This document shows positions 13,113 to 57,595 of a stretch of DNA of 64,000 nt, piece after piece. Origin of the DNA: an uncultured Methanoregulaceae archaeon (GTDB lineage: Archaea; Halobacteriota; Methanomicrobia; Methanomicrobiales; Methanospirillaceae); NCBI GenBank assembly GCA_963737635.1, contig CAVTTL010000001.1:640001-704000 (forward strand). The letters run 5' to 3'. A program made the translations under genes and the position numbers. Under the pieces are notes generated by a model. It had not been told where the DNA came from. It saw nothing but the letters and a program-made list of their open reading frames with translations, and made no database searches. Position 1 is the first letter of the stretch; every line of letters begins with the position of its first letter.

Positions 13113-14171
13113 ATGACGCATGTCCGCATCACGGCCGATTCTGGCATTCCCCTTGTTGGCTCCCTCTATTTTGGCATTATTGACCGGGGCACAAGCCTCC
13201 TGCAGGTACGTCCGAGCTGTGGCTGCAACTTAAACTGCCCCTTCTGCTCGGTCGACGCCGGGCCGTGCTCGGTAACCCGTGCCACCAGTTACGAAGTCGA
13301 GCTGGAGTACCTTCTCTCGGCTGTTGAAGAGATCGCACCCTTCAAAGGTCCCGGCGTCGAATGCCACATCGATTCTCCGGGCGAACCACTCATGTACTCC
13401 CGGCTCCCTGAACTGGTCGCGGCGCTTAAGGCACTCGATTCCGTCGCTGTTGTTTCGCTCCAGACAAACGGTACCCTTCTGAGCTGAGAGGCACTCGATT
13501 CCGTCGCTGTTGTTTCGCTCCAGACAAACGGTACCCTTCTGAGCGATGCAATGATAGAAGCGCTTGCCCGGGCAGGTCTCGACCGGGTCAACCTCTCTCT
13601 CCATGCACTCGATCCAACGCTTGCCCGCACATTGGCCGGTGTGGACTGGTACGATATCGATAGGGTCTGCAGCGCAGCACAGGCTGTCGCAAAAAGTTCC
13701 ATGGATCTTCTTATTGCCCCGGTGTATATGCCGGGCATCAACGACGCCGAGATCCCGAAGCTGATCGATTTTGCCCGGGAATGCGGTGCTGGAAAACGGT
13801 TCCCGCCGCTCGGCATCCAGAAGTTCGAGCGGTACAGGTACGGCCGTACACCAAAAGGGGTCAAAGTCCAGAGCTGGTGGCAGTTTTTCAACCGGAGCAT
13901 CAAAGAGTGGGAAAAAACGTCAGGTCTTCCCCTCCGTCTCAACCCTGAAAGGGACTTTGGAACGGTCCGGCGTCCCTCGCTCCCGCAGGTGTTTAAAAAG
14001 GGCGAGAAGGCAACAGTCGAGATCATGGCCCCGGGCTGGATCCATGGCGAACAGTTGGGCATCGCACGAAACCGGGTGGTCTCGGTGTTTGGCTGTGACA
14101 AAACGTCAGGTCAGGTACGGGTCAGGATCGTAGCGACGAAGAACAACATCTACGTCGGCGTACCTATCTAG
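13113..14171 (+). pseudogene. Radical SAM protein (C-terminal TRAM-like region), interrupted by an in-frame TGA inside a 60-bp duplication
   Basis: CNLNCPFC motif, GEPL, SLQTNG; same reading frame on both sides of TGA 13485-13487. Confidence 0.75.
13429..13544 (+). repeat. Tandem duplication: two identical 56-bp copies separated by TGAG
   Basis: 13429-13484 is identical to 13489-13544. Confidence 0.97.
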
Positions 14172-37957: not shown

Positions 37958-38282
37958 TCACAATACTAAGTTAGTATTTAAGGTCACCGATATCGCACTC
38001 GTACCTTTTGTCAGAAACGTGCCGAGCTTATCCAGCTGTTGATTAAAGCCCCCTTGCATTCCTTGTACCGCCATACCGGCTTTTGGTCCGGTTGCGTTTA
38101 TCGTGACTTTCAGTTTCAGTTTGGTCTTGCCATTCTCAGGGATCGGGGTAAGTTCGGTCACCTGATCGATTTCTGTGGCTTCTTTTTGTCCCTCAGTCCA
38201 GGCTTTGGCCGCGTATGACAGCTTCGAATTCGTCTCCACCACCGTAAACGTGCCTTCCATCGGCCATCTCGTTCCTTTGTAG
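37958..38282 (-). pseudogene. 5'-truncated SRPBCC/AHSA1-like gene remnant
   Basis: YKGTRWPMEGTFTVVE..KLSY..ENGKTKL..GMQGGFNQQLDKL; the frame runs straight into the terminal CRISPR repeat. Confidence 0.65.
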
Positions 38283-41200
38283 TTTAGTCCGATTCAAACG
38301 TAAGCTGGTGAACGTACCCAATCGAGTATGCACCGTATTTCAATCCTAATTTAGTCCGATTCAAACCACCGGTCCACTTCCTCAACCATATGGTAACGGT
38401 TCTTTGATTTCAATCCTAATTTAGTCCGATTCAAACGATAACAAGATCACCGTCCAGCGTATGCGGATTATTCATTTCAATCCTAATTTAGTCCGATTCA
38501 AACGGGCAAAATCCCACATTGCCGATATTTATCCGGGGATTTCAATCCTAATTTAGTCCGATTCAAACGCCCGAAATCGTCCGAGTAGGACATCTGATTG
38601 TTTATTTCAATCCTAATTTAGTCCGATTCAAACTTTCTCTGAGGCATTGATCTGCAGTGCGGTATTGTTATTTCAATCCTAATTTAGTCCGATTCAAACG
38701 TATCTCGCCGAAGGCGTGCTCGTAGGATGCGATCTCAGATTTCAATCCTAATTTAGTCCGATTCAAACCTTATGACCCGGGTCCTGCCCGGGAGGGCCCT
38801 GTTGATTTCAATCCTAATTTAGTCCGATTCAAACTCCAGGATTCCGCCTCACCTCATGGCGATGATTCCCCATTTCAATCCTAATTTAGTCCGATTCAAA
38901 CCCGTCTACCGGACCGTTTGCTCTGGCACCGGGTTTATTTCAATCCTAATTTAGTCCGATTCAAACACGTACCTCCTCTCGCACACGGCAGTTCCGCCGG
39001 GAAATTTCAATCCTAATTTAGTCCGATTCAAACCGTTGGTCGCTGGGCGTTTCCCCGCTGAACGATGTTATTTCAATCCTAATTTAGTCCGATTCAAACA
39101 CGGCACGGTGAATCAGACCTGCATCGGGCCGTTGTGCATTTCAATCCTAATTTAGTCCGATTCAAACTCAAGGATTCAACGATGCAAACGAAATCCTCCA
39201 CACCATTTCAATCCTAATTTAGTCCGATTCAAACCAGCGATGTGCTTCTTGCGTTGGGGGGTATCATCCTATTTCAATCCTAATTTAGTCCGATTCAAAC
39301 TTGAAAAGACAGATTATAAAAAGGACGGTTAACGAAATTTCAATCCTAATTTAGTCCGATTCAAACTGCTTGAGGCTCGCGGGTTTACCTGTGTTCCTCA
39401 AAATTTCAATCCTAATTTAGTCCGATTCAAACGACCATCACTCACCTCCCACGGCTTTCAGGTACGGCATTTCAATCCTAATTTAGTCCGATTCAAACCG
39501 ACGGTCTGGCTTTCTTCAGGATCCGTGATACCGATTTCAATCCTAATTTAGTCCGATTCAAACTGCCCGAAGGTGCCGGGGAAGTCAGCGAAGATACCAT
39601 TTCAATCCTAATTTAGTCCGATTCAAACATCATGGCGCCACGATCGATGAGATCGTCCAGAAGAATTTCAATCCTAATTTAGTCCGATTCAAACCTCAGC
39701 CAGGCGCAGTCCGCATACTCGTACGCGACATTTCAATCCTAATTTAGTCCGATTCAAACCACGAGCGTTTTCACGTCACTGGTGATGCCCGTCGTATTTC
39801 AATCCTAATTTAGTCCGATTCAAACATTCCCCGGGCTCGGCACGACGACGGTGATATTCTCATTTCAATCCTAATTTAGTCCGATTCAAACGTTATCGTG
39901 GTTTTCTCGGTCGCGGTGAACTGTTTGATTTCAATCCTAATTTAGTCCGATTCAAACCCCCGGCGATGGCATCGTGCGACATCAGGAAATATAATTTCAA
40001 TCCTAATTTAGTCCGATTCAAACCGTTGTCCTTGATCTTCTGGCAGTGGACCATGGCTCATTTCAATCCTAATTTAGTCCGATTCAAACCCTCAGTCATC
40101 TGAAGAGAGGACTTCATGGCTTCCCATTTCAATCCTAATTTAGTCCGATTCAAACCGTGGTGAGTCGGCAGCGTCTCCGACCGGGGGCTCGTATTTCAAT
40201 CCTAATTTAGTCCGATTCAAACTTGATTCAGGTCGATCGGAGTGGTGCAGGATATTGTTATTTCAATCCTAATTTAGTCCGATTCAAACGCCGGGTATAT
40301 GCCGAACAATTCACTAGCTACGGAATTTCAATCCTAATTTAGTCCGATTCAAACACCTCGTCGGGATCTGCCCGAAAACCCAGATATTTTATTTCAATCC
40401 TAATTTAGTCCGATTCAAACCCATCGTTCAGACCCCCATGAGGACTGGACGCATCTCATTTCAATCCTAATTTAGTCCGATTCAAACGATGCCGACCTCA
40501 CGGGTGCCAACCTCAAGCGTGCCGACCTCAATTTCAATCCTAATTTAGTCCGATTCAAACGTGGTGGTATTGCACAGCAGGATCCGACGTTACTAAACCC
40601 ATTTCAATCCTAATTTAGTCCGATTCAAACAGAGCAAGGGCAGCACATTCGCTTCCGCCAACATCTATTTCAATCCTAATTTAGTCCGATTCAAACCCGG
40701 ATCGGTTTGCCTGCGAAGGCCTCTGCGAAGGCATTTCAATCCTAATTTAGTCCGATTCAAACACCATGGGATGTCATACACAAGACGTTCTGTTTCACAG
40801 ATTTCAATCCTAATTTAGTCCGATTCAAACTTTATATGGTCGCACCGAAAAAAGAATCTGTGGCACATTTCAATCCTAATTTAGTCCGATTCAAACTTTA
40901 TATGGTCGCACCGAAAAAAGAATCTGTGGCACATTTCAATCCTAATTTAGTCCGATTCAAACACCCGTCACGGCTCAGGCTGTGGCATCTGATGCGACAT
41001 TTCAATCCTAATTTAGTCCGATTCAAACTGGCGAAACCCCAATTCACATCTTCGAGCTTCTTGATCATTTCAATCCTAATTTAGTCCGATTCAAACAGTA
41101 GGTGCCGCTGCGCAACAGGCCGAACAAGCCATATTTCAATCCTAATTTAGTCCGATTCAAACAATGTCTCGGTAATAGCAAAAGGTGCCCCAGTTGATAT

Positions 41201-41463
41201 TTCAATCCTAATTTAGTCCGATTCAAACCGGAGAGCAATGCATGGCACTCTGATTCGAATTTCAATCCTAATTTAGTCCGATTCAAACCGTGCTGTAAAC
41301 GATTCTGCAGTCCGGATTTCAATCCTAATTTAGTCCGATTCAAACTACTGAGATCTTGTCGTGGCAAGTATTTCAATCCTAATTTAGTCCGATTCAAACC
41401 ATACTCTCGCATCCGACCGGATATGCCATAGTTATTTCAATCCTAATTTAGTCCGATTCAAAC
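38283..41463 (-). CRISPR. CRISPR array, 30-bp repeat GTTTGAATCGGACTAAATTAGGATTGAAAT, 48 full repeats plus one truncated, 48 spacers (24-43 nt, mostly 35-38)
   Basis: Identical repeats counted by eye. Orientation from the ATTGAAAT 3' end, the leader next to cas2 and the degenerate repeat at the low-coordinate end. Confidence 0.99.
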
Positions 41464-41649
41464 ACGCCCCAAAATTGGGCCTTTTTCCCAGCAAAGTATG
41501 GAACTCTGCAGGTAGCGGGCTGAGAGGATGCTGTCGACGACAGACTTTTTCCCAGCAAAGTATGGAACTCTGGTGGTTCGATCATAGATAATCTGGGATC
41601 GGTAATAACGTTTTCACTATAAGAAGATCCCCGACAATCGAGGGAGAGA
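41464..41649 (-). promoter_or_regulatory. CRISPR leader
   Basis: Non-coding region between the cas2 stop and the first repeat. Confidence 0.8.
41481..41572. repeat. Perfect 28-bp direct repeat flanking a 36-bp unique insert in the leader
   Basis: CTTTTTCCCAGCAAAGTATGGAACTCTG at 41481-41508 and 41545-41572. Confidence 0.95.
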
Positions 41650-41913
41650 CTAGATAATAGAACACTGATCGGCCTTTTCAATTCCCATATTGTCGATCTT
41701 CACCAGATCCTGCGATCTGATCACATAAAAACGAACCGAATCCTCATCCTTTTTGATAATTTTTTTCAACCCGTATTCGATATCGGCAAACTGCCGGTCA
41801 GTCAGCTCTCCTTCAAACACCGAGTTCTGTACCCGGACAAGGTACCGGCGGAGATACTTGCAGACTTTTGCAACGCGCTCCACCGAGACATCGTAGACAA
41901 TAATCACGTACAT
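41650..41913 (-). CDS. cas2: CRISPR-associated endonuclease Cas2
   Basis: MYVIIVYDV, VQNSVFEG, DSVRFY. Confidence 0.97.
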   Translation of the reverse strand: MYVIIVYDVSVERVAKVCKYLRRYLVRVQNSVFEGELTDRQFADIEYGLKKIIKKDEDSVRFYVIRSQDLVKIDNMGIEKADQCSII

Positions 41914-41920
41914 CAGGGAA

Positions 41921-43024
41921 TCACCACCAGATTGCAAACGGCTTGTAATCCTTCATGCCGGTAAACTGCTTCCCGAGTTTGATGCACTCAAGATACACCA
42001 ATCGCTGGTACGAGACGTTTCTCCCAAGATCCCGGTGTTTGATAGTCGTCTCCAGTTTCTCGTTGAACTCGGTCAGGAAGACCCGTTTTCCCTTATCGTT
42101 GAGCAGGCACGAGCCGAGATCGGTCCGGAAATCCTCAGGCGAGATCATATCCTTGTTGACTAATTTGAAGATCACGCGGTCGACCAGCAGTGGTTTGAAA
42201 ATTTCAGAGACATCAAGCGAAAGCGAAAAACGTCGTTCCGACGGCTCGTGAAGGAACGAGATCGTCTGGTCGAGCTGGGTCTTGTAGATAGCGTTGATCG
42301 TCAGACCGTACACCAGTGAGTTCCCGAAACTGATCATGGCATTGAGCGGATTTGCCGGTGGTTGCCGGCTCCGGCCGCCAAACGAGAATCCGTTCTTGAG
42401 AATCTTGTCGAAGGTGCTGTAATAGAGGGAGCGGATGTTCCCTTCCGCGGCAAGCAGCTGCCCGACATTGTTGATCGTCTCTGCCTGCTCCACGAACGCC
42501 AGGATGTCCGCGATCTCCCGCTCGACCGGTTTTCCCTCGTTCCGGTAATATTCGAGATTTTTGAGGATATTTGCTGCCGAACCGGTCACGAACTTCTTTG
42601 CGAGAGCGAGCCGCTTCTTTGGGTCGAGATACCACGAGGCCTGCCGTATGTGCATCTCACCGGAGAGCAATGAATCCTTCGGGATGAGCGTACTCTCGTA
42701 GTGCCCGTAATAGCCAAAGAAATGGATCGGCACCGAATATTTCGAAAAGAACGATATCACCCCTGATGTAAGCGAGATCCTTCCGAAGGCAAAGATCGCA
42801 TCGGTCTGTTCTATCGGGAGCGGGCGCTTCTCATATTCCGGTGCATCGGAAATATCGTCCGGCTCAAGCGGGGATTCCTCACCCTCGTATTCCTCCACGA
42901 ACTCCGGTTTCTGCGCGGTGCCGGGTGTTTTCTCCGGGATTTCCTCCTTTTTGCTGACAAAATAGAGCGTGTTCTGTTTCCGGATCAGTTTCCCGTTCTT
43001 GATGAGGTAGAGGTTCTTTTTCAT
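41921..43024 (-). CDS. cas1: Cas1 (type I-B)
   Basis: AEGNIR..YY, NAMISFGNSLVY, FLHEP..RRFSLSLDVSEIFKP. Confidence 0.97.
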   Translation of the reverse strand: MKKNLYLIKNGKLIRKQNTLYFVSKKEEIPEKTPGTAQKPEFVEEYEGEESPLEPDDISDAPEYEKRPLPIEQTDAIFAFGRISLTSGVISFFSKYSVPIHFFGYYGHYESTLIPKDSLLSGEMHIRQASWYLDPKKRLALAKKFVTGSAANILKNLEYYRNEGKPVEREIADILAFVEQAETINNVGQLLAAEGNIRSLYYSTFDKILKNGFSFGGRSRQPPANPLNAMISFGNSLVYGLTINAIYKTQLDQTISFLHEPSERRFSLSLDVSEIFKPLLVDRVIFKLVNKDMISPEDFRTDLGSCLLNDKGKRVFLTEFNEKLETTIKHRDLGRNVSYQRLVYLECIKLGKQFTGMKDYKPFAIWW

Positions 43025-43026
43025 GA

Positions 43027-43542
43027 TCACACCCAGCAGAATTCCATGTACGCACATTTCCGGCAGTAGGTCTTTTTTTCCGGGGGCGGCGGGCTTTCGA
43101 GACTGATGATACCGGGAATGGCTGAAAGGATCCCTTCGAGTTCGGCCCGGGCGGCATCGGTGAGCTCAACATGCACCCGTTCCCGGCTCTCCGGGTAATC
43201 GAGGACGCCATCGACGTTCTGGAGCCCTTTGACGGTCACGAGATAATAGATGTAATACAGGAGCTGGTACCGGTGCGCGCGCTCCAGTTTCCTGGATTTT
43301 TTTACTTCGTGGACGGTGATCGTATCGCCGGTTTTGATAAAATCGATGCCGACCCGGTTGTCGATGATCACGTCCTTTTTCTCCCGCTCGTAGGATGTTT
43401 CGTGGATGAATCTTCCCATGGCAACGAGATCCGAGCCGGACTCCATGGTGATGTGATGCGTAAACAGCCAGAGTTTGGTTGTGCAGATGATGTAGTAGTT
43501 GACCTGCGTGCCGGTGAAAAGTTCCTGCGATGAGATGTCCAC
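43027..43542 (-). CDS. cas4: Cas4
   Basis: GTQVNYYIIC..KLWLF, IDF, HEVKKS, QLLYY, CRKCAY.EFC. Confidence 0.96.
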   Translation of the reverse strand: MDISSQELFTGTQVNYYIICTTKLWLFTHHITMESGSDLVAMGRFIHETSYEREKKDVIIDNRVGIDFIKTGDTITVHEVKKSRKLERAHRYQLLYYIYYLVTVKGLQNVDGVLDYPESRERVHVELTDAARAELEGILSAIPGIISLESPPPPEKKTYCRKCAYMEFCWV

Positions 43543-43603: not shown

Positions 43604-43889
43604 TTACAGCCACTTATACTTTTTATGAGCTTGCTCGATGGGTCATTATCTCGTTAACGAAAACAACGGCACCTTCGATTTCGTAAAAAGCGGTGAATGT
43701 GCGTCCGATATGGAACCGGTAAATTCTCACGCCCGGCGGAGGTTCAGGAGTTCCTTGTCTCCCCTTTTTTCCGGGGAACGGATCATATTCAAGGGATTTC
43801 AGGTAGGTTTCGATGATCCTTATGCTCTTGTCTCTTTGAAAATTGACGAATCCGATCGCATCGATATCGATGCTGACCTCAAACGTCAC
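43604..43889 (-). CDS. RelE/ParE-family toxin (several apparent indels)
   Basis: DPFPG..YRFHIGRTFTAFYEI; alternate frames restore GDKELL and IEQAHKKY. Confidence 0.75.
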
Positions 43890-44092
43890 TTCCTGATCTC
43901 CGAGAGCGGGACGTATCTGTTCCGTTTCCTGATGCGCCCAGTCTCTTCAATCAGCCGGGTCTCGGAATCTCTCCTGATGAGATTCCCGATGGCATCGTCA
44001 TAGGTCTCTCCCGGTTTTCTGAGCTGGTGGACAGTCTCCCACGTGCTGAGGGATACGGGAATCCTTTTCGTGGCGCACTCCTGTCCGGTCAT
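43886..44092 (-). CDS. Putative antitoxin (archaeal RHH/VapB-like)
   Basis: KRIPVS..TW..L..GETYDDAI..YVPLSE; overlaps the toxin start. Confidence 0.75.
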   Translation of the reverse strand: MTGQECATKRIPVSLSTWETVHQLRKPGETYDDAIGNLIRRDSETRLIEETGRIRKRNRYVPLSEIRK

Positions 44093-44159
44093 GAGAAGAT
44101 AGTAGGCACTGGATTTATTTACAATTTCCGGAGAGGACAGGGGCGGCACGGGTAATCGG

Positions 44160-44325
44160 TCCGCGCAGGCCGGTGATGGCGACGGCCTGTTTGAGGGAAA
44201 GCCACGGCCCGATCTCATCGTACAGATCGCGGCCGGGTCGGGGGAACGTCAAACGTCCGCCCTTCAAGCCCGGGATTGAATTCCCGGATGAGCCGGATCA
44301 GGTGGTCTGTATCTACAGTATAGTG
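44160..44325 (-). pseudogene. Remnant of the 5' end of an AAA+ (COG1373-like) ATPase
   Basis: HLIRLIREFNP..VPPTR, then in a shifted frame DLYDEIGPWLSLKQAVAITGLR; truncated at Walker A. Confidence 0.6.
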
Positions 44326-44456: not shown

Positions 44457-45302
44457 TCAATTGATCTCAATCGAAACCTTCCCGCCACCCTTGCTTTTCT
44501 GGCCACCAAGTACAGTGATATTGTTCAATGCCGGGATGAGAATTTCATTGATTAATAGAAGCTGTGCATCTTGAACGGGTTTGGATGCAATTCCATCTAA
44601 CCAGAGATCGACTTTTTCTCCGCCGATAAACCGGGGTTTCCCAAATTCAAAATCGCTCTGTTTTACAACAATTTCCAAATCGCCTTTGAATATCGTCCCC
44701 GGTTTAACTTGTTCACCGGTAATAATCGCACCTTTGGCTGCTGTCCCGCTCTTCCGATCAATGCGGATACTTGTTTGGTCAATTCGATATTCACCGACTT
44801 CCGGCCAGAAATTGGGTGCACGAAGACATCCCATCAACCCAGCTGCACCGAAGAAATAGCAGACCGGGCAAAGACCAATCGAATTGTTATGGTTCTTCGG
44901 GATTTCAACTCTATTTTCTTCAATTTTTATCTCACAATTATGTTGACGATATTCAGATGGAGACAATTTCTTTTCAGCCAGTGATGGTCTTGATGCTGGA
45001 ATGCATGGTTTGAGAAAATCATCTGCGGGAGTCGCAAATTTTGACTTTAGATCGTTCTTCCTGGCAATAAGAATTTGTTCAACCTGATATCTGAATGCCC
45101 CTTTGAAACTAGATGCCGGAATCGCGGGTTTTCCATCTACAGAAAAGACCGGCCCCTTCTTTTCAGTGAGTGGGGAAGGCGTACCTCCGATATGGAGAAA
45201 TGATCCCTGCCTGACTGTAATTTTCAGAGGTATCTGGAATATTTGAATGATACCCTGATGCTTAATTTCAGGCAATGTGTTAATATGCTCTATGCTACTC
45301 AT
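44457..45302 (-). CDS. Cas7-group RAMP (Csm3-like), type III-F-like
   Basis: LHIGG, PAIPASSFKGAFR, CPVCYFFG, IRIDRKSGTA, LGGQKSKGGGKV G-loop. Confidence 0.9.
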   Translation of the reverse strand: MSSIEHINTLPEIKHQGIIQIFQIPLKITVRQGSFLHIGGTPSPLTEKKGPVFSVDGKPAIPASSFKGAFRYQVEQILIARKNDLKSKFATPADDFLKPCIPASRPSLAEKKLSPSEYRQHNCEIKIEENRVEIPKNHNNSIGLCPVCYFFGAAGLMGCLRAPNFWPEVGEYRIDQTSIRIDRKSGTAAKGAIITGEQVKPGTIFKGDLEIVVKQSDFEFGKPRFIGGEKVDLWLDGIASKPVQDAQLLLINEILIPALNNITVLGGQKSKGGGKVSIEIN

Positions 45303-45888
45303 TTTTAACCATCTCCGTATAATGCGTCAAAGAATTTACTTTTCGGATGAAGAATGCAATCTCAATGATGTCCTGTTTCATATCATACAACACCTTCACG
45401 TATTCAAAAATCTTCTTGAGCGCTGCTCTTTCAAATCTATTGGCCTTATCGATTTTGTATAAAAAATATTCCTCAACAATGGGAAAATTATGATTCTCAA
45501 TCACTTTTCCATAATCCTCCATATTCGGCAAATTGCATTTGATAATACTGAAGTGATCGAGTGTTAAAAACATTTGATTGATGGTGTAGGGTTTTTTAAT
45601 CAGCGATTCTTTTAATGCATTAGTTAATTCTCCCGCTTCCTGAATTGCGTTTTGTCGTTTAGAATCCCTTTCAGATTGTTGATATTCCTTCCGTAAGTCG
45701 CTGATTTTATCATCGATCTTCTTATTTACGCTAACAATGTCATTATTCTGAAATTTTGTTTTGAGATCCTTCCATTCGTTATGGTCAAAAATCTTGAATT
45801 TTATGAAGAAAATATCCGGGTCGTTTAATACACGTTTCATTACATCGTCCAGCGGGACACTAACAGTCATACTCATATTTCTCACCAA
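45295..45888 (-). CDS. Putative divergent Cas11 small subunit
   Basis: Apparently all-helical protein of about 195 aa between cas5 and cas7, overlapping both; assigned by position only. Confidence 0.6.
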   Translation of the reverse strand: MVRNMSMTVSVPLDDVMKRVLNDPDIFFIKFKIFDHNEWKDLKTKFQNNDIVSVNKKIDDKISDLRKEYQQSERDSKRQNAIQEAGELTNALKESLIKKPYTINQMFLTLDHFSIIKCNLPNMEDYGKVIENHNFPIVEEYFLYKIDKANRFERAALKKIFEYVKVLYDMKQDIIEIAFFIRKVNSLTHYTEMVKNE

Positions 45889-46504
45889 TAAGGAGTTCAG
45901 GACCTTCTACAATACTATCTTCAAATAATGCTCTTTTATAGACTCCCCCAATTTTAGAAGTAGGATAGAATAAGTATCCATAACAAGGTTTTATAATTCT
46001 ATTGATGCCAAAGGAATGACATTCCTCTTCAAGGAGACGGCCATTCAAATAACCTGTAATTGTTTTCGGCTTGATTTCATCGATAAACGATAATTCACAT
46101 CTTCCAAATCCTTTGCTTTTCAGAGCACCAAGAACGATTTCTGTTTGTTTATTGGGGGGAAGATTCTCCGCTGCTTCATTTCTCAAGATGTAAATATCTC
46201 CAAGAACCGCTGCATTATATTGCGTCGGTTTGAGATATTCCAAAAAGATTGGCAATTTTGCAGTACCGGTAATTGCATCAAACGGTGCATAGGTAAAAAT
46301 GGCTTTTTCATATGTCCCTATTCTGAAAAAACCGATTGCCTGAATATCATGAAATCCAAAATATTCCTTGAAACACCCTTTCAGCGTGGATGTCGGAATA
46401 TTTTCAATACATGGCCGGAAAGTTCCCCCTTTGACCCGCTCTCCGATTGCAATTGCCGATGTACTTATGCAGTAATGAAGAAAACTGAGGGAGGCTTGGG
46501 TCAT
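45860..46504 (-). CDS. Cas5-group RAMP, type III-F-like
   Basis: IAIGER..IPTSTLKG and LGALKSKGFGRC G-loop. Confidence 0.8.
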   Translation of the reverse strand: MTQASLSFLHYCISTSAIAIGERVKGGTFRPCIENIPTSTLKGCFKEYFGFHDIQAIGFFRIGTYEKAIFTYAPFDAITGTAKLPIFLEYLKPTQYNAAVLGDIYILRNEAAENLPPNKQTEIVLGALKSKGFGRCELSFIDEIKPKTITGYLNGRLLEEECHSFGINRIIKPCYGYLFYPTSKIGGVYKRALFEDSIVEGPELLIGEKYEYDC

Positions 46505-48459
46505 GTACCTCTCACCTCATTGATCAACTTGTGAAAATCCAGAATCTGACGGATGGACAGCCCCTGCTGCATCAGGTCGGTTATGAAAGAGTAATGTGAG
46601 GGATCTTTCATTATTTCGAGTTGGACTACCATTTTACTTTGGGTTTTTTGATCAATATCCGACAACCGGTGAATCCAATGACTTGTTCTTTGATCGTCAT
46701 CTTGTAACTTTTTTCTAAGGGATCGATATTGTTGTACAGTAAGTGAAAGAAGACTGCTTCCTGCAATCTGAATGTTAATATCCTTCTTTGGTTTTGACAG
46801 GAATTCCCAGTGATTCCGGTAAGGGTATTTGGTACGGGCAATGCTCATGGAAAATTTGATAGGGGAACTGTCAAGACATTCTGGAAAATGAGCTTCCAGA
46901 AGGTCATAAAATAAATCAAGCACCGGCAGGATTTCTTCACTGGATTTGACTTTGAATATCCCGAATTCGTTATATCCTTCGATGGGGAAAAGAAATGAAT
47001 CATCCGTATATAGGGGTGATTGATCCCGTTGTTTTATGGTAAAGATCTGAGCGGAAAAATCATCCAGGAAAGATTGATAATCACGAATAAAACTCATTTG
47101 AACTGCAAGGGGCCTGAACATCTCTATCAGAATCTTCTTATCACCAGCTTGAACCGGTTGCATTGTAGGATGAGAATAGACATACTTTTTGAATAATGTA
47201 CGAATTGTTTCATCCAGATGTTGTTGATCAAGGGAGATTTTCAGCCATGCGGCCTTTACATCCTCTTCATCCCACTTGGCATAAACAGCTGCGGGCTCAC
47301 CAATTTCCCGAATGTTATAGCAATCATCACATAAATGCTCATGAATTTTGTCTTTGATCCTCTCTTGACCGGGTCTTACCTGGCAGGAATCACATAAGGG
47401 TGGTGAAATTTCTGCCGGAATTTCAGGACCGAGCCGTTTTTCAAATAATTTGAGATTTCTGTTAGTCCGTTTTTCATGAAATGTTTTGTATTGGCGACCT
47501 ATTGACGAAGTCAGGAGATTTAATTCCGCTTCCAGTTCCTTGTAATCGAGGATGAGACCGGAATCAATAAATGGTTTCATTAATATCTGGAGTGGAAGTT
47601 CCTCCTCTTTGGGAACAAAAAGACACAGAAAATCAGCCGTGGAGAATAAAACATAATCTCTCGTATTTTCATTTTCTGAAAATGCCTTGATTATATCAAT
47701 TCGTTTTTGGAATACATTGAGATCCTGAAGCCGTATCAATTCATTGGAGAATTTTACTTGACAAAAAACAAGACGGTAAATCCATTTTCCTTTTTGATTA
47801 ATCTGGTCAATTCTTCCCCCTGTCGCTTCGTTGATAGAGTTTATTTCATTGCCGCAGTAGATCAGCTTATTTTTTTGTTGATCAAACCAGGAATGTTTTT
47901 TCAAAATCCTGAATATCTTTCCAGTCAGATCTAAATGAGTGTATAGGTCGGTAATATTGAATGGTGCTGATTTATCCTCGGCGGTAAGCAGAAGATTGTC
48001 TTCATATGTTTTAAGAAATTCTTCGGAAAATGAACACTTATCAATAAAGCGAAACATTTCCTTTAATTTTTCTGGTGTATCAAATACAGCCCACTTTTTC
48101 CCGGCATTCATTTCATTTTGATAAAACTTTGGATTCCAAAGAACAAATATACCGTCGGATACTTGACCCTTTTTACCCCAAGTGCGGGAAATCGAGGCTG
48201 CGATTTCATCTGCGATATTCGTAAGAAGCACATCGGAAAGATGCTCTTTTGGGATTTTTTTGGTTGAAGAAAGAGATCTTATTTCATCGCTGAACTGCCC
48301 CCACCAACTCGGGGATGTAGGTGGGGCAATTCCAATTTGAGAAAAGTCAAAATTATGAAATGTATGGCCGGTAAATTGAATATTCTGATTTTTTAAAGAA
48401 TCTTTATCCACGAGCTTCCCGATATCATGCAGCTCTGCGATGAAAGCCCGATCATTCAT
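46501..48459 (-). CDS. cas10: Cas10-like large subunit, HD nuclease motifs intact, no GGDD
   Basis: AELHDIGK, IADEIAAS, LYTHLDLT, CDSC..LCDDC zinc finger; no GGDD anywhere in the protein. Confidence 0.85.
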   Translation of the reverse strand: MNDRAFIAELHDIGKLVDKDSLKNQNIQFTGHTFHNFDFSQIGIAPPTSPSWWGQFSDEIRSLSSTKKIPKEHLSDVLLTNIADEIAASISRTWGKKGQVSDGIFVLWNPKFYQNEMNAGKKWAVFDTPEKLKEMFRFIDKCSFSEEFLKTYEDNLLLTAEDKSAPFNITDLYTHLDLTGKIFRILKKHSWFDQQKNKLIYCGNEINSINEATGGRIDQINQKGKWIYRLVFCQVKFSNELIRLQDLNVFQKRIDIIKAFSENENTRDYVLFSTADFLCLFVPKEEELPLQILMKPFIDSGLILDYKELEAELNLLTSSIGRQYKTFHEKRTNRNLKLFEKRLGPEIPAEISPPLCDSCQVRPGQERIKDKIHEHLCDDCYNIREIGEPAAVYAKWDEEDVKAAWLKISLDQQHLDETIRTLFKKYVYSHPTMQPVQAGDKKILIEMFRPLAVQMSFIRDYQSFLDDFSAQIFTIKQRDQSPLYTDDSFLFPIEGYNEFGIFKVKSSEEILPVLDLFYDLLEAHFPECLDSSPIKFSMSIARTKYPYRNHWEFLSKPKKDINIQIAGSSLLSLTVQQYRSLRKKLQDDDQRTSHWIHRLSDIDQKTQSKMVVQLEIMKDPSHYSFITDLMQQGLSIRQILDFHKLINEVRGT

Positions 48460-48754: not shown

Positions 48755-50192
48755 ATGATCCCTTCGGGAAGTCCGGTCTCAACACAACTGGCTAACATAG
48801 ATTCTTCTGTACGATTCACCTTCTCGTTGACCGGGGATCCTTTTGTTGACGCACGGCATTACTGCAATAGAACTGATGACCGGAAAATCCTGGCCGGACA
48901 TTCAGGATGAGGATTTCAAAAAAGCAGCGGAATCTCTTGTTGATCTCTACCTGACACCAGCCTGGTCAAAGGAACTCAATTCGCTTTTTCCAAACAGCAG
49001 TTACATCCAGTATGCAAAGGGGTATAACAGAAATGAAAAATCCCGGGAATTTCTCTTCGAACTGATTCAAGGACTGGAGAATCTACAGACAACTCTCGAC
49101 TACTGCGTCTTTTGTGGCGCACCTGCCTTCAGAAGAAAAGATCACTCACCATTCGTGAAATCCCAGATTCCCCTTGTGGGATCATCAAGTTTCACTAATT
49201 ATTTTCCTTCGTTCCATAATGGCGTAAGTATTTGTGCCAAGTGTGCACTCGCCATCCAGTTCGCTCCACTCGTATCATACAAAGCCGGAGGAAAACCCTG
49301 CATCGTTTCAAGCAACAACCCCTGTGTGATTCAGGAGTTGGGACGCGAAGCAATGCATTACATTCACGAACAGAAACTTCTCGGTGCGTACCAGCTGAAG
49401 GAAACCTCAGGTATTCTTGATGAGAAGTTCCGGTCGCCACAGAACGCAATCTTCCATCTTGCATACAAGGTTACCCGACTTTACCGTACAAAAGGCATCA
49501 GCAGTGAGAATGAAGAAATTACTCTCTATCATATCGACAACTACAACCAGAATCCAAAAGGTATCGCAATATATACACTCCCGAACAATGTTTTCCGTTT
49601 TGTCGCAGTGGTCATGAGCAGTCCGGAGTACCGGGCCGCGTGGTTTGCCTTATTGTCACGCCACTATTCAAAATCAAAAAAGGAAACGGAAGATGTCCCC
49701 CTCTGGAAAGTGGCATCGAACCTGATTCATAACCAGCTGTTGAATAACCAGAGTATCCTCTGGGCGTTTAAGGATGATGAAAGAAAAACCCTGACGATTC
49801 CGTTCATCGTTGTCGAACGGTATATGGAACTGGTGAAAGGCATGAACAAGCAACGAATTGAAAAGATCAAAACACTCGCGGACAGAATAGCCGAATGCAT
49901 CGAAAAAAGCGGAGATAAAAAACGGGTCAATGCCTTACAATCTGCAAGAGATCTCGTCTCCTTCCGCAACCAGCTTCGGCTGATCCTTAAGGACTGGCAG
50001 AAACAGGGACGCGACAAACCCTTGATTGAATTTGATGATTATATCGAAGTTCTCATTCCTGGGGATTATGCCGGCTGGACAGAGGTCCGGGACCTCATCG
50101 TGATCAGGTTATATGAAAAACTTCATCCCCTGCTTGCACGGACAGCGGATGAAGATGATATGGATGACTCAGAAAAAGGTGGAAATAAATGA
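48755..50192 (+). CDS. cas8: Type I-B Cas8 (Cst1/CXXC-CXXC family), +1 frameshift near 48854
   Basis: TGDPFVDAG motif split across frames, FPNS, CVFCG, PLVGS...NYF, CAKC..AIQFAP. Confidence 0.88.
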
Positions 50193-51250
50193 AAACAATC
50201 ATTGGAGCATATCTTATTGACGCACCGTTCTCTGCGCTCAACAACAGCGGAATCGACCAGAGAGCTGCAAATGAAAATGAAGTTGCGACAAAAACGATCA
50301 AATCTCCCGAAGGTGTCCGGCCGTATGTGTCGGCGCAGGCGCTCAGGTACTGGTGGAGAAATGTGCTGGTAAGTAAATATGACTGGAAGTGTTCTCCGGT
50401 AACAAAACTGGATAAGAACCAAGCCATCACCCAAGCCGATCCACTCACTTATCCTGATGATGATATTTTCGGGTATATGAGTGCCCGGCGCGAACCGACC
50501 GGAAAAATTGACAAAAAAGGAAACCCGGTCTTGGAAAATGTAACGGTTACACGGGTTTCCCCCCTGAAATGCTCGCCGGCTATCGGTCTGCCGATTGCCC
50601 CGAAATCGGATTTTGGCGTAATGAACCGGCACCCGGAAGGCGATCCCGTTCTCTATAACCACCAGTTCTACAGCAATATCCTCAAAGGGATATTTGCTCT
50701 CGATATCGATCTTGCAGGAACTTTTACTTCCCTTGACAAGCCCGGTGCAAAAAACCTCTCGGAAGATCTTCGTAAAATCTGCGAAGAAAAAGGCATGAAA
50801 AAAGTCGATCCTGAGAATAAGAGCAAAGAATGGTACATTCTTCCTGAAGCACAGAAAAAAACCAGAATTATCCAGACAATATCTGCATTAAAATATCTCA
50901 ACGGTGGGGCGATGCAGACCCTGCATCACACGGATGTAACCCCGAAGCTGATCATTCTTGCCGTTCTCAATGGCGGGAATAATATCTTCATGGACGTCTT
51001 CCCCCACCGCAGGTACGATGAAGGTCTCATCAACCTTGACGCACTCAGCGAAGTGCTGACCGATTACAAACAAGATCTCTTGTCCGGGGTCTATATCGGG
51101 AGAATGGCAGGTTTTGGATCCGACAAAGACAAAGAACTGGATTCCTTCAAGGCTCCCGAAGGGATAAACCTGACCCTTGCCACACCGGCACAGGCAATCG
51201 ACGGATTTGTTAAAGAAATTTCCCAGAGTAAGAAAATCTTCGGTGCCTGA
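50189..51250 (+). CDS. cas7: Type I-B Cas7 (Cst2/DevR)
   Basis: ALNNSG, PYVSAQALRYWWR, DDDIFGYM, TRVSPLK, GGAMQT..TDVTP. Confidence 0.95.
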   Translation: MKTIIGAYLIDAPFSALNNSGIDQRAANENEVATKTIKSPEGVRPYVSAQALRYWWRNVLVSKYDWKCSPVTKLDKNQAITQADPLTYPDDDIFGYMSARREPTGKIDKKGNPVLENVTVTRVSPLKCSPAIGLPIAPKSDFGVMNRHPEGDPVLYNHQFYSNILKGIFALDIDLAGTFTSLDKPGAKNLSEDLRKICEEKGMKKVDPENKSKEWYILPEAQKKTRIIQTISALKYLNGGAMQTLHHTDVTPKLIILAVLNGGNNIFMDVFPHRRYDEGLINLDALSEVLTDYKQDLLSGVYIGRMAGFGSDKDKELDSFKAPEGINLTLATPAQAIDGFVKEISQSKKIFGA

Positions 51251-51252
51251 AT

Positions 51253-51912
51253 ATGGAATTCCTGCGCGTGGAGATATCGGCGATGACTGCGTCATTCCGG
51301 TATCCCATGTTCGTTGTTTCCTACCAGCCGACCTATCCGGTTCCACCGGTCTCTACACTCTACGGCCTTTTGTCTGCGGCCAAAGGATCAAAGGTTGCTC
51401 TTGATGAAGTCAACATCGGGTATTCGTTCACATCAGAAGGGAAAGGAATCGATCTTGAACGAATCTATGAATATGGCGATGAGAGCGAGAAAAAACCCGT
51501 GCACAGTCTCGGGACAAACATTGTCCAGAGAGAGTTTCTGTATAACTGTTATCTGACGCTTTACCTGTCGGATACCCGGTTTGCAGAATATTTCCAGAAC
51601 CCGGCGTACACCCTGCTCATGGGGAGGCAGACCGATCTGGCATACATAAAATGCATCAGGACCGTGGAACTTGATAAGAGACCGGATGTCGAAATCAATC
51701 ACACCATGGTTCCCTTCACCGGAGAAATTCCCGGTCAGATCATTTCCCTCCCATCCGATTTCACGGATACCGCACAGAGAAAACCCCTGAATGTAAAGAG
51801 TTATGCGATAATCACATCGCCACAACACATTCATGACGGTTTTTTCGATGCGGAAAAAGAGTGTGGGGTATTTATTCATGATTTCACCGGTGCTGGCAAA
51901 GAAAAACGGTGA
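51253..51912 (+). CDS. cas5: Type I-B Cas5
   Basis: TASFRYP..QPTYPVPPVSTLYGLLSAA, REFL, MGRQTDL. Confidence 0.95.
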   Translation: MEFLRVEISAMTASFRYPMFVVSYQPTYPVPPVSTLYGLLSAAKGSKVALDEVNIGYSFTSEGKGIDLERIYEYGDESEKKPVHSLGTNIVQREFLYNCYLTLYLSDTRFAEYFQNPAYTLLMGRQTDLAYIKCIRTVELDKRPDVEINHTMVPFTGEIPGQIISLPSDFTDTAQRKPLNVKSYAIITSPQHIHDGFFDAEKECGVFIHDFTGAGKEKR

Positions 51913-54082
51913 GACGCTCCGCGATCATACCCAGAACTGTCTTGAACTTTTTGTCTTTTTCAAAGATTTGTTTCCCGGGCTGGATCAGAAATGCGGATAC
52001 CCTGAATTTTATGATGATATCGCCACAGCATTGTTCTTTCATGATTTCGGGAAAGCCTCAACCGGATTTCAGCGCCAGTTCCAGCCAAATAATCCCCAAT
52101 ATCATTATCGTCATGAAATCCTTTCAGTGCCGTTTGTTGAATCACTCCATTGGGGCGATACGGAATTTATTAAAGAACTGGTGCTGACTCATCACAAAAC
52201 CTTGGATCAGCTCAGCGATTATGTTGAACAGGAAGATTCACTTGATCCCGGTTTTGCTGATCGTTTATCTGAGATCAAAGAAAACCTCCCATACCTTAAT
52301 GACCTCATTGAGGATTTTCAACAACTCCCTGCTTGCAGTGAACTACCGCATAAGCCGCAAAAAATGGCCAGCCTCGATGTTTCAAAAGAGTGCTGGGAAA
52401 ATGTTTTACGGACAATGTACCGGGAAAACCGGGAGTCGTCCGATAAAAATGCCCGGTTAAGAAGAATTTTTGGCAAGGGCTTTGTCAACAGCTGCGATTA
52501 CATGGCATCTGCCGGGATCCGTACCGTACTAAAGCCGCTTGCCGATATTCACCCGGTATTTCCGTTTCAAAATCTTACAACCGTTCAGGATATCGTCGGC
52601 AGGACAAAAGGCAATGCGATCATTACTGCGCCGACCGGGTCGGGAAAAACCGAGGCTGCGTTGTTCTGGGCTACCTGCAACCTGGACGCAAACCGTGGAA
52701 ACAGGATATTTTACACTCTTCCCTATACAGCAAGCATCAATGCCATGTACGTCCGTTTGAAAAATGCATTATCTCCTAAGTACGCGGGTGAGGAGACCTG
52801 TGTCTCGCTGATGCACGGTAAAGCCTCGTACTATCTCTGGAAATTTTACGAAGAGACGGAACGCTTCGATTTTGTAAAATCCGTTTCAAAAAGGATTTAC
52901 AGTCCGTACAAAGTGATGACCCCTTTCCAGTCGATAAAACATTTTTTCTCGCTCAAAGGATACGAGATGGGGCTGCTGGAAACGTACCGGGGATTATTCA
53001 TCTTTGATGAGATCCATGCATATGATGCAAAAAATACAGCACTTATCCTTGGCATGACCGATTTTCTGGTCAATACACTTGATGCAAAAGTCCTCGTCAT
53101 GTCTGCAACATTGCCCACCTTCATCCGTTCCCGGTTCGCCGAATGTCTCGATGTGTCCGAAGAGATTCGAATGACAGCTCCTGAACTGTCGAAATATCTT
53201 AGGCACCGGTGCACAATCCTCGATGGAGATATTTTTGATCATATCGATCTGATCAAACAAAATCTCCGTGAAAAGAGAAAAGTCCTCATTGTCTGCAATA
53301 CCGTCAAGCGGGCTCAGGACGTTTATGAATTATTAAAAAATGAGACCGGCAACCGTGCACTTCTCCATGGTAAATATACCTTGAATGATAGGGAGAAAAT
53401 CGAAGGAACACTTGGGGAACGGAAATTGCTGGTCGGCACCCAGACCATCGAAGTCTCACTTGATATCGATTACGATATCTGTTTTACCGAGCCCGCCCCG
53501 ATTGATGCCCTCATCCAGCGGTTCGGACGGGTGAACAGGAGAAAGAACGCGGACGGAACCCCGCAGAAAGGGATTTGCCCGGTCTTCGTGTTCACGAAAG
53601 GATCGGAGAATGATCGCTTTATCTATAATGAACAGAAGGTTTCAAAAACTCTCGATCTCCTGTCCGGCCTCGATCTGCTCCATGAAAATCTCCTGCAGGA
53701 TATCACCGACAAAGTCTATGACGACGGCTTCGGCTCGCAGGAAACAGAGTTCAACGAGACCCAAACCCTCTTCCTGCACCTGATTGACGAACAACAACCC
53801 TACTGTAGTTCGAATCGGAGCGAATCAGATTTTTACCGGCTGTTCAGTGCAGTCGAAGCCGTTCCCTTGTGTTACGCTGCTGTATATGATGAGTGCATAC
53901 AGTCCGGAAGAATTTACGACGCAATGAAGTACGTCGTGCCCCTCACGCTCGGGCAGTACCACAAACTGAAATCAGAAAACCGGGTGAGTGAGAATAAAGA
54001 ACGAATTGTTATCGATGCAAAATATGACATGGAAACAGGACTGCTGATCGGCCAGCGGGATCCGTCAGCGATGACCATGTAA
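51878..54082 (+). CDS. cas3: Cas3 HD nuclease-helicase
   Basis: TLRDH, HDFGK, RHE, HH, APTGSGKT, DEIH, SAT, QRFGRVNR. Confidence 0.97.
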   Translation: MISPVLAKKNGETLRDHTQNCLELFVFFKDLFPGLDQKCGYPEFYDDIATALFFHDFGKASTGFQRQFQPNNPQYHYRHEILSVPFVESLHWGDTEFIKELVLTHHKTLDQLSDYVEQEDSLDPGFADRLSEIKENLPYLNDLIEDFQQLPACSELPHKPQKMASLDVSKECWENVLRTMYRENRESSDKNARLRRIFGKGFVNSCDYMASAGIRTVLKPLADIHPVFPFQNLTTVQDIVGRTKGNAIITAPTGSGKTEAALFWATCNLDANRGNRIFYTLPYTASINAMYVRLKNALSPKYAGEETCVSLMHGKASYYLWKFYEETERFDFVKSVSKRIYSPYKVMTPFQSIKHFFSLKGYEMGLLETYRGLFIFDEIHAYDAKNTALILGMTDFLVNTLDAKVLVMSATLPTFIRSRFAECLDVSEEIRMTAPELSKYLRHRCTILDGDIFDHIDLIKQNLREKRKVLIVCNTVKRAQDVYELLKNETGNRALLHGKYTLNDREKIEGTLGERKLLVGTQTIEVSLDIDYDICFTEPAPIDALIQRFGRVNRRKNADGTPQKGICPVFVFTKGSENDRFIYNEQKVSKTLDLLSGLDLLHENLLQDITDKVYDDGFGSQETEFNETQTLFLHLIDEQQPYCSSNRSESDFYRLFSAVEAVPLCYAAVYDECIQSGRIYDAMKYVVPLTLGQYHKLKSENRVSENKERIVIDAKYDMETGLLIGQRDPSAMTM

Positions 54083-56145: not shown

Positions 56146-56827
56146 TCATCTCCGCGTCCTTTTCCGGGACCGGAGAGAAGAATCCACCGAATCCATCCAT
56201 GCAAGAGCATCCGGGGTCTCCTCCCAGGCCCGGCGGTTGTCAAGGGCATAGACCACCGCCTCGCTCCTGTCTCCCCGGCTCATATACTCCGGGTGACGGG
56301 CAGGGAGCTTCTTTGTTCCCAGCAGGTACTGCGGGACAAACGGGTTCTCATCAACTGCTATCCGGAGGCAGGCATCCGCTGCCGGGCCCCGGCCCTCCTG
56401 CCGGAATTTCAGGAGCGCCCGGGAATACAGCCAGACAGCGGAACCGTCCTCTTCATACTCCTTAAGGAGATTCCCCAGCGCTTCGTTATCATCCTGTTCC
56501 AGCAGGCAGGTCGCCAGTTCGTACCTGGCCCCCTGGTTTGTCGTTCGGGTTGAGCCCGAGGAGATCGGTAAAAACGTCAATTGCCCGTGACCGCTCGCCC
56601 ATGAAGTGAAGCTGGAGCCCGAGCATGAACCGTGCACGCACTCCCTCCTCAAGAAGCCGGAGGGCCTCATTCTTATCAGGCATCGCTTCCTCAGCGAGAA
56701 TGACATATGCATCCGCACAGTCCCTTGAGATCGAAAGAGCCCGGCGGACCAGCTCAACCCGCTTTTTCCCCCGAGCATCAAACGCATCACAGATGATGTC
56801 CTGAGCCTCCGCGAGCGGCAATCTCAT
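56146..56827 (-). pseudogene. TPR-like helical protein, frameshifted near 56540
   Basis: RRALSISRDCADAYVILAE..LNPND|NQGARY..WLYSRAL..NPFVPQYL. Confidence 0.7.
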
Positions 56828-57595
56828 CGGTCATCCCTCCCTTTTACCACATTCACAAACCCGAACCCGAAACTGTTCCTCTCGCCAAACCCGGCATCGA
56901 GCCCGAACCCGACAATCTTCCGCTGCATGTCGTTCATATGGCTCCAGGAAAATTCCCAGAGGCTTCCTGCCGCCCCGTAACTCTTCCCGTCAATGATGTA
57001 CCGGGTATGCACGGTTTTTTTGAACAGGAATTCCTGGAAGAGCGGGAGCGTGCCAACCGAGGTCCCATACGCATCGTTGTATTTTTTGATCATGTTTTCT
57101 GAAAGCTGCTTAATGAATGCCTCAAACGAGATCTGCGGACGCCAGTACACGTTACCGGGGCCGGCGTTCATCAGCCGGCACCGCATAGAGATCGTAATTG
57201 TACTCCGGGATACGCAGCAGGATCGGCGTCGCGCAGATGATCCGGACCGGACCCTGGCCGAGTGAGGTCTCAACCGCTCTTACTCCATCGAGCGCAAACG
57301 CGCAGTCACCGATATGAATTTCTTTTTCAGCGTGACTCGTGGTAAGGTACTGCGCGAGGTGTTCAATGATCGTGCTGCCCGGCGATGCGATCATGAAGTG
57401 GCGCACGTCTCCCGTTTTCATATCGCCGAACGGGAAAATGTTCGAAAAACAGAACTGCTTGTAGCCGGGCTTGTCGTGCAGCAGGGGAAAACCCGCTTCC
57501 GCGATAAGTGAATAAACAAAACCCTGGAGCTTGTGGTACTCAAGCGAGACATCCTTCTGATCGTTTTTCGATATGAGCCGGAGCAGGAGGCGCAT
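56824..57595 (-). CDS. cas6: Cas6 endoribonuclease (+1 frameshift near 57152)
   Basis: YHKLQGFVY, LHD..GYKQFCFSNIFP, TPI, AGFGERNSFGFG G-loop. Confidence 0.92.

Follow-up and report, generated by a model that had tools for sequence, protein, structure and literature searches.

The leader of a CRISPR array in an uncultured Methanoregulaceae archaeon was found to contain a 36-nt copy of the start of the host gene nrdJ, inserted between two perfect copies of a 28-bp leader sequence. The array lies in the 64,000-nt stretch of DNA analysed here (the window, G000:C1:640001-704000), which belongs to a 2.46-Mb genome in four contigs. The insertion has exact borders, a known donor, a duplicated target, an empty counterpart in the leaders of relatives and an intact cas4-cas1-cas2 module beside it, and a second event of the same geometry is present elsewhere in the genome. 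The structure is interpreted, with a probability of about 0.9, as a natural off-target (non-canonical) integration of a self-derived spacer into the leader by the array's own adaptation module.

Structure of the insertion

The leader was taken as positions 41464-41649 and the array direction as the minus strand. The leader-proximal (first) CRISPR repeat (41434-41463, minus strand) was intact and was separated from the duplication by a 17-nt leader element (41464-41480; GCCCAATTTTGGGGCGT on the minus strand). This was followed by the repeat-proximal copy of the duplicated target, or pseudo-repeat (41481-41508), the ectopic 36-nt insert (41509-41544, minus strand), the repeat-distal copy (41545-41572) and the remainder of the leader up to the cas2 stop codon (41573-41649, minus strand). 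Both copies of the target consist of the 28-mer CTTTTTCCCAGCAAAGTATGGAACTCTG.

The copies were identical at 28 of 28 positions, with their starts 64 nt apart, as seen both by reading the sequence and with a repeat finder. This confirmed a preliminary description of the DNA, which had reported a perfect 28-bp duplication around a 36-nt insert, 17 bp past the first repeat. With up to three mismatches allowed, the 28-mer occurred at two places in the window, 41481-41508 and 41545-41572 (chance expectation 0.00 in 100 dinucleotide-preserving shuffles), and at up to six substitutions the same two places were the only ones found across the 2.46-Mb genome. The G at 41508 is shared with the donor, which leaves two options: a 28-bp duplication with a 36-nt insert, or a 27-bp duplication with a 37-nt insert. 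The length of 36 nt, said in the same description to be typical of the array, proved to be its modal spacer length (22 of the 47 spacers). The arrays of relatives held 421 distinct spacers of 32-43 nt.

The 28-mer had also been described as unrelated to the CRISPR repeat, and this was upheld. Compared in six registers and on both strands, it was identical to the repeat at 6-11 of 30 positions. Among background windows from the leader and cas2, the commonest score was 8, and about 290 of roughly 1,200 scored at least 10. As its identities fell within the bulk of this distribution, the possibility that the 28-mer is a diverged CRISPR repeat was ruled out. The Rfam CRISPR-DR models gave no match in 41481-41572, though all seven true repeats of the scanned stretch were matched.

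Two other origins of the structure were discarded. Tandem duplication by slippage was ruled out, since the middle 36 nt are absent from orthologous leaders and identical to a distant gene. Transposable elements and miniature inverted-repeat transposable elements carry their own ends and produce short target duplications of 2-15 bp; these were also ruled out by the 28-bp length of the duplication and by the insert, all 36 nt of which are nrdJ coding sequence.

The donor is the host nrdJ gene

In a genome search, the insert matched at 36 of 36 positions, reverse-complemented, to G000:C1:892459-892494, 211 kb away (BLAST E value 1.3e-14). Counting the ambiguous G, the match extended to 37 of 37 positions and then ended, and the 60-nt flanks on either side did not align. 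The donor sequence begins 9 nt past the ATG of nrdJ, corresponding to approximately codons 4-15 of this gene for a B12-dependent ribonucleotide reductase (NCBIfam NF006417, E values 9.6e-37 and 9.5e-191 for its two pieces). Read in the array direction (minus strand), the insert is nrdJ sense sequence. The neighbours of nrdJ are ordinary chromosomal genes, encoding a CMD-family protein, FMN reductases, a fasciclin-domain protein and an H+-pyrophosphatase.

The same nrdJ stretch was present at 90-95% identity in nine listed genomes of the genus. It was confirmed to lie inside nrdJ for four of these (L013, L014, L018 and L023), and the matches in all nine were taken to be their nrdJ genes. Because the stretch is shared by these genomes and the leader copy is identical to the allele of its own genome, nrdJ was considered the source and the leader copy derived. 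The protospacer in nrdJ is flanked by 5'-CCA upstream in the array direction and by 5'-CCG on the opposite strand; the protospacer adjacent motif (PAM) used by Pyrococcus furiosus is of the CCN type.

With respect to the donor region itself, the nrdJ open reading frame (ORF) (L009:8415-10663, outside the window) was split by a 1-nt deletion near L009:8779 relative to the gene of a relative. The adjacent H+-pyrophosphatase ORF (L009:10822-12069) spans only profile positions 267-645.

Among 49 queries (the insert, the terminal spacer and the 47 others), the insert alone matched the genome outside the array. The best other off-array match in the genome was 21 nt with two mismatches. A wider set of 256 distinct spacers, own-genome loci included, gave no match of at least 26 nt outside arrays when searched against the genome and the collected loci. 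Among 108 genomes from the genus and 401 from the order, the canonical spacers matched only related arrays or orphan repeats, and phage records gave no match. Plasmid records yielded one weak match only, for one spacer, over 44 nt at 86% identity in pentapeptide-repeat genes. This match involved the longest spacer (43 nt, 40488-40530) together with 1 nt of the adjacent repeat, and was to two Acaryochloris plasmids (E value 2e-3); it probably reflects repeat-coding sequence rather than a true protospacer. The pattern of self-matching in the genome fits selection against self-targeting at a functional position and tolerance where Cas6 should not recognise the flanks.

The site is empty in orthologous leaders

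The closest Cas1 relatives were records titled Methanoregula sp. Leaders were compared in five genomes, three of Methanoregula (L030, L031 and L033, with Cas1 identities to the window of 97%, 90% and 74%) and two of Methanoculleus (L034 and L035, 63% and 66%). The loci L011/L030, L043/L031 and L012/L033 are the same DNA, and each pair was counted once. In the alignment, all five orthologous leaders contained a single 28-mer region and lacked exactly the 64 bp, which agrees with the lengthening of the leader by 64 bp given in the preliminary description. None of the five carried two copies or a conserved middle, the arrangement which that description had named as the counter-case.

The empty site was also seen in the same-genus genome G167. 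Here, the first repeat, the 17 nt and the 28-mer mapped to C27:17979-18053, and the sequence from the 28-mer to cas2 mapped to C27:18026-18421. The two mapped halves overlapped by exactly 28 nt, and the pairwise alignment showed one clean gap of 64 columns. At 41491/41555 (plus strand), both copies in the window have G and both close relatives have A. That the identical copies both differ from the close relatives at this position fits a duplication within this lineage. For an empty allele from the same species, an exact scan of JGI metagenome contigs with the 28-mer gave no match.

In the leader alignment, the 17-nt element was largely conserved across the three Methanoregula leaders and had been left unaltered by the insertion. 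A block at ~41588-41633 was also conserved among relatives and included a TATA-like TTATAG at ~41618-41623. The insertion has increased the distance of this block, which may be the array promoter, from the first repeat by 64 bp.

A second structure of the same geometry

The whole genome was scanned in a first pass for perfect direct repeats of at least 20 nt, with periods of 44-90 nt and a non-repeated insert between them, and in a second pass with two mismatches in 26 nt allowed. Outside both CRISPR arrays of the genome, two loci fitted in 2.46 Mb: the leader locus and C1:1607137-1607232 (L060:4138-4233, outside the window). At the latter, a perfect 30-bp duplication surrounds a unique 36-nt insert.

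The target of this second structure is the signal-peptide region of a DUF3821 surface-protein gene that has two paralogues. By eye, the C-terminus of the surface protein appeared PGF-CTERM-like, without a model match. Both paralogues contained the 30-mer once, with one mismatch each and no insert. In homologues of the gene within the genus, the two halves of the query overlapped by ~30 nt, i.e. the site was empty. The insert introduces an in-frame TGA when read from the ATG, and an ORF restarts at a TTG within the distal copy.

The second insert had no match in 108 genomes of the genus, in its own genome, in phage and plasmid records, in exact scans of IMG/VR and JGI metagenomes, or, with up to three mismatches allowed, in 400 other genomes of the order. 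No motif common to the two off-target sites was seen by eye (n=2).

Several further candidates from the scan were rejected as ordinary tandem repeats. For C1:1482817, C1:1399585 and C1:1653468, the insert or the repeat recurred in a neighbouring period, while C1:1517870 and C1:653429 were judged from the listed dimensions only. The last of these, at 13429-13548 of the window, is a 56-nt perfect direct repeat with a 60-nt period.

The insertion in public assemblies

Of 24 listed sequencing runs, 20 held part of 41200-41900 and six held at least half of the sampled words; the sole RNA run listed held a share of 0.04. Logan contigs were compared for four runs from four coded studies. Record 5 of run X1 covered 41437-41537 without difference, including the first repeat, the 17 nt, the proximal 28-mer and 29 nt of the insert. 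Record 8 of X1 and record 18 of X5 covered 41515-42100, again without difference, including 30 nt of the insert, the distal 28-mer, the leader and cas2. Record 14 of X3 covered 41508-42100 and then continued upstream into 194 nt of nrdJ flank from a variant allele, which was read as a graph path through the shared 37-mer, with no rearrangement. The other contigs end 29-30 letters into the insert because a 37-nt sequence that is present twice limits a graph with k=31. In X1, a 37-nt unitig (41508-41544) had a depth of 21 compared to 10.8 in the flank; this approximate doubling is expected, since the sequence is present at two loci. Record 26 of X8 (41527-41692) held 18 nt of the insert and the distal 28-mer, with eight differences near the cas2 end, and is a weak hint that a diverged strain may share the insertion.

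The preliminary description had left it to raw data whether the duplication is real. The Logan contigs of the four runs all cover at least one junction, and none joins 41508 to 41573 or skips the 64 bp, with the limit that such contigs drop rare variants. Uncovered stretches, for instance 41000-41036 in all four runs, were uninformative.

Proposed mechanism

The cas4-cas1-cas2 module would serve the 30-nt-repeat array that is common to the type I-B and type III-F-like effector genes of the locus. It would have acquired 36-37 bp of the host's own DNA, from the 5' end of nrdJ, and directed paired attacks on two leader sites separated by 27-28 bp (positions -18 to -45, counted upstream from the first repeat). 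Repair of the two single-stranded gaps would then have duplicated the 28-bp target, giving the order 28-mer/36-mer/28-mer and a leader longer by 64 bp. The repeat-side cut, at -17/-18, coincides with the upstream edge of the conserved 17-nt element. The lengthened leader may, as the preliminary description proposed, alter array transcription or acquisition.

The inserted unit would be transcribed within the leader of the precursor CRISPR RNA (pre-crRNA). Cas6 should leave its flanks uncut, since neither 28-mer is a CRISPR repeat; no mature crRNA would then come from the insert, and it would be immunologically silent. Such silence would explain the persistence of a spacer that matches an essential-type host gene, when none of the 47 canonical spacers matches the host. 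The unit would also be selectively neutral. The flanks are not of the CRISPR repeat family, and the unit is single, with no array growth. Judged on these features, the unit is probably a silent mis-integration rather than a working mini-array. Of the two readings offered in the preliminary description, mis-integration fits better than a functional repeat-spacer-repeat unit, on account of the non-CRISPR flanks and the presence of one unit only. The integration is fixed, and it is recent, since there are no differences between the two 28-mers or between the insert and its donor.

A number of points weigh against off-target integration by this module. The duplication, at 27-28 bp, is 2-3 bp short of the canonical 30-bp repeat, and the likeness of the target to the repeat (6-11/30) is not above background. 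The empty sites are known from other species and not from the same population. No canonical spacer matched a protospacer with which the donor flanks, 5'-CCA and 5'-CCG, could be compared as a PAM. As to orientation, Rfam CRISPR-DR2 matched the repeats weakly on the plus strand, at 20.6 bits against a gathering score of 37; these sub-threshold matches lend no support to the minus-strand orientation and were given little weight. In the Logan data, with 31 letters on both sides, only record 14 of X3 bridges the right junction, and it continues into the nrdJ flank; one Logan run may also be the sample behind the genome assembly. Lastly, three cas1 genes scored above the Pfam cut-off in the genome, two of them beyond that of the window.

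Alternative explanations

These two cas1 genes raise the alternative of a real integration by another integrase, either the Cas1-Cas2 of a second CRISPR locus or a stand-alone Cas1. One of them (G000:C1:1689632-1690495) lies near a second array (G000:C1:1686857-1688480) with ~23 repeats of 37 nt and spacers mostly of 33-38 nt. The other is a solo cas1 (G000:C1:1447778-1448596, L073; 310 aa) with no array within 9 kb on either side and three neighbouring ORFs without a PADLOC match. The sizes observed, 27-28 and 30 bp for the duplications and 36 nt for the inserts, agree with the 30-nt repeat and modal 36-nt spacer of the window's array but not with a 37-nt repeat, and the leader event adjoins the cas1-cas2 of the 30-nt array itself. 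Casposase-type Cas1 enzymes produce duplications of ~14-15 bp. On balance, another integrase is an unlikely source. In the second array, one interval of 67 nt was observed, which suggests a degenerate repeat.

Less probable still is a replication or repair error without Cas proteins, in which template switching or microhomology-mediated insertion copied 36 nt of nrdJ and duplicated 28 bp. Errors of this kind can insert short ectopic copies, and one base, the G at 41508, is common to the donor flank and the target. However, the flanks of donor and target are not homologous, and a clean duplication of 28 or 30 bp with an insert of modal spacer length was found twice in this genome, at just two such loci in 2.46 Mb. 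No repair error is known to yield a clean 28- or 30-bp target duplication around an insert of exactly the modal spacer length.

An assembly artefact, i.e. a mis-join through the nrdJ 37-mer in error-prone reads, was considered very improbable. In its favour, record 14 of X3 runs from the nrdJ flank through the 37-mer into the leader, and the nrdJ, H+-pyrophosphatase, cas6 and surface-protein genes all appear split, which suggests either assembly indel errors or several pseudogenes. Against this, the leader sequence that flanks the insert is carried by independent contigs from different studies, to the left by X1 record 5 and to the right by X1 record 8 and X5 record 18, and the shared 37-mer unitig in X1 has about twice the flank depth. 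Nor would a perfect duplication of 28 bp arise from a mis-join.

A conserved pair of protein-binding sites with the middle as a linker can be dismissed: CRISPR leaders do hold conserved motifs, and those of Methanoregula share the 3' part of the 28-mer (TGGGAAAAAG, minus strand) as a conserved stretch, but all five orthologous leaders have one copy, none has the middle, and the middle is an exact nrdJ copy.

Array, spacers and gene setting

The CRISPR array (38270-41463, minus strand) comprises 48 identical 30-nt repeats (38337-41463), 47 spacers and a degenerate terminal repeat (38270-38299), which marks the end of the array far from cas2. The repeat reads ATTTCAATCC...TTCAAAC on the plus strand and GTTTGAATCGGACTAAATTAGGATTGAAAT on the minus strand. 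The crRNA tag, of 8 nt, resembles ATTGAAA(G/C). The minus-strand direction was adopted because of the direction of the cas genes, the degenerate repeat at the far end and the conservation of the cas2-to-array region in relatives. No other array with this 30-nt repeat was present in the genome.

The four leader-proximal spacers (41229-41433) measured 30, 27, 24 and 34 nt, and the other 43 spacers of the array 35-43 nt. Spacers of 30 nt or less occurred in none of these 43 and in none of the 421 distinct spacers in relatives' arrays. Further into the array, two adjacent spacers (40831-40866 and 40897-40932) were identical 36-mers, i.e. a duplicated repeat-spacer unit. A faulty Cas4, Cas1 or Cas2 was considered as the origin of the short spacers and rejected, since the orthologue alignments showed neither truncation nor lost conserved residues. 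The two off-target integrations in one genome, the three short leader-proximal spacers (41229-41369) and the cut at the edge of the 17-nt element raise the idea of a recent error-prone phase of the adaptation machinery in this lineage, with the leader event as both product and cause, but this idea is doubtful. On this view, the position of the cut would point to docking of Cas1-Cas2 on the 'wrong' side of a leader element bound by a factor, possibly histone, and the 64-bp shift of the motifs upstream could disturb later acquisitions. If the idea is true, natural genomes keep a record of the way in which leader architecture governs the fidelity of integration in archaea, and of the rise of new repeat-spacer units next to arrays.

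The adaptation genes are all on the minus strand and consist of cas2 (41650-41937; Pfam PF09827, E value 9.7e-23), cas1 (41921-43057; PF01867, 5e-83; 97% and 90% identity to two Methanoregula orthologues) and cas4 (43027-43542; PF01930, 5.1e-59; TIGR00372), the last with its conserved C-terminal cysteines present. Cas4, Cas1 and Cas2 aligned with orthologues over their full length, with the conserved cysteines and the nuclease motif in place. Two small ORFs at 43623-44218 had no family match.

The single cas4-cas1-cas2 and single array accompany two effector modules that lie back to back and diverge, one type III-F-like (44457-48459) and one type I-B (48843-54082). The former, on the minus strand, contains cas7 (44457-45302; PADLOC Cas7_IIIf, 9.7e-77), cas11 (45295-45888; Cas11f, 2e-37), cas5 (45860-46504; Cas5_IIIf, 1.1e-54) and cas10 (46501-48459; Cas10a|Cas10f, 2.1e-115). 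The latter, on the plus strand, contains cas8b (48843-50192; PADLOC Cas8b, 2.2e-44), cas7 (50189-51250; Cas7b, 5.7e-51), cas5 (51253-51912; Cas5b, 1.1e-63) and cas3 (51833-54082; Cas3b, 8.4e-198). A Cas6 C-terminal domain is encoded at 56848-57204. The cas6 gene (56824-57595) appears split, with this domain in ORF 56824-57273 and an overlapping ORF in another frame (57152-57595) without a family match; this could be a frameshift or an assembly indel.

Significance and comparison with known systems

If the interpretation is true, an archaeal module containing cas4 and with a 30-bp ruler is able to integrate into DNA unlike the repeat with a spacing of 27-30 bp. The leader itself could be a target, which bears on how leader motifs and host factors position the integrase, and a self-derived spacer could persist at an off-target site, probably for want of crRNA processing there. 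Scans for repeat-length duplications around spacer-length inserts could gauge how often CRISPR integrases damage host genes or seed arrays.

Off-target integration that seeds new arrays was reportedly described in Escherichia coli by Nivala, Shipman and Church in 2018. The literature searched, which was limited in coverage, yielded no description of a natural case in which a spacer from an identified self donor had been integrated into a leader.

In type II-A systems of Streptococcus thermophilus, ectopic spacer acquisition takes place inside arrays (PMC5338259, PMC7999890). As in the Methanoregula leader, the spacer is placed away from the leader-repeat junction. The type II-A target, however, is a genuine internal CRISPR repeat and the resulting units are functional, whereas the target here is non-repeat leader DNA.

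In the type I-B system of Haloarcula hispanica, altered mid-repeat anchor motifs led to duplications of 29, 31, 32 or 33 bp (Wang et al. 2016, PMC4872114). The two systems have in common the type I-B classification, a 30-bp repeat and a duplication that departs from 30 bp when the anchors are not in place. Since shifts of the anchors change the duplication size in Haloarcula, and the site here has no anchors, slack in the ruler is a plausible account of the 27-28-bp duplication. The Haloarcula sizes of 29-33 bp were obtained at an engineered repeat, in contrast to 27-28 bp at a site without repeat motifs.

Archaeal histones were reported to lower off-target integration and to need leader base pairs -4 to -19 (PMC13748974). 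The position of the repeat-side cut, -17/-18 at the edge of the conserved element, is in this respect a lead and not a result.

The system of P. furiosus, with 30-bp repeats and 37-bp spacers, is close in its dimensions. There, Cas1-Cas2 attacks non-CRISPR DNA at pairs of sites on opposite strands that are 30-31 bp apart (Grainy et al. 2019, PMC6698737), compared to 27-28 bp in the Methanoregula leader and 30 bp in the second event. G is favoured at the attacked base, followed by C, and C is preferred at leader position -3; one preferred off-target site was only 43% identical to the repeat (PMC6698737). If the duplication in the leader is 28 bp, both attacked bases are C, and the upstream context in the array direction, ACCAC|CAGAG, has C at -3. 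This agreement with the P. furiosus preference is suggestive only, as it comes from a single case. Both systems thus share 30-bp repeats, spacers of ~36-37 bp, a target that in P. furiosus is only loosely repeat-like, and, in the present case, C at -3 and, for a 28-bp duplication, at the attacked positions. The P. furiosus sites were on plasmids in vitro and kept some repeat-like positions, whereas in Methanoregula the identity is 6-11/30 and the product is fixed in a natural genome.

The closest parallel is the off-target integration by type I-E Cas1-Cas2 of E. coli, which gives neo-CRISPR units, as cited in PMC6698737, PMC7054753 and bioRxiv 10.1101/148544. In common with these, the leader event has a spacer-length insert at a non-repeat site, a duplication of approximately repeat length, a cognate integrase and a formal repeat-spacer-repeat unit. 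Off-target integration is known mainly from over-expression and in vitro assays, and the natural evidence in the E. coli neo-CRISPR study, from two other species, was called 'circumstantial' (bioRxiv 10.1101/148544). Unlike the E. coli units, which arose under over-expression, the leader case is natural and archaeal, and involves a module containing cas4. Its site is inside a CRISPR leader, 17 bp from the first repeat, its donor is a known housekeeping gene, and the empty site is seen in sister species. The locus has kept all of the elements, namely a donor in the same genome, a perfect duplication, an empty site in sister species and a second independent event, and is an unusually complete natural archaeal example of the known off-target ('neo-CRISPR') integration.

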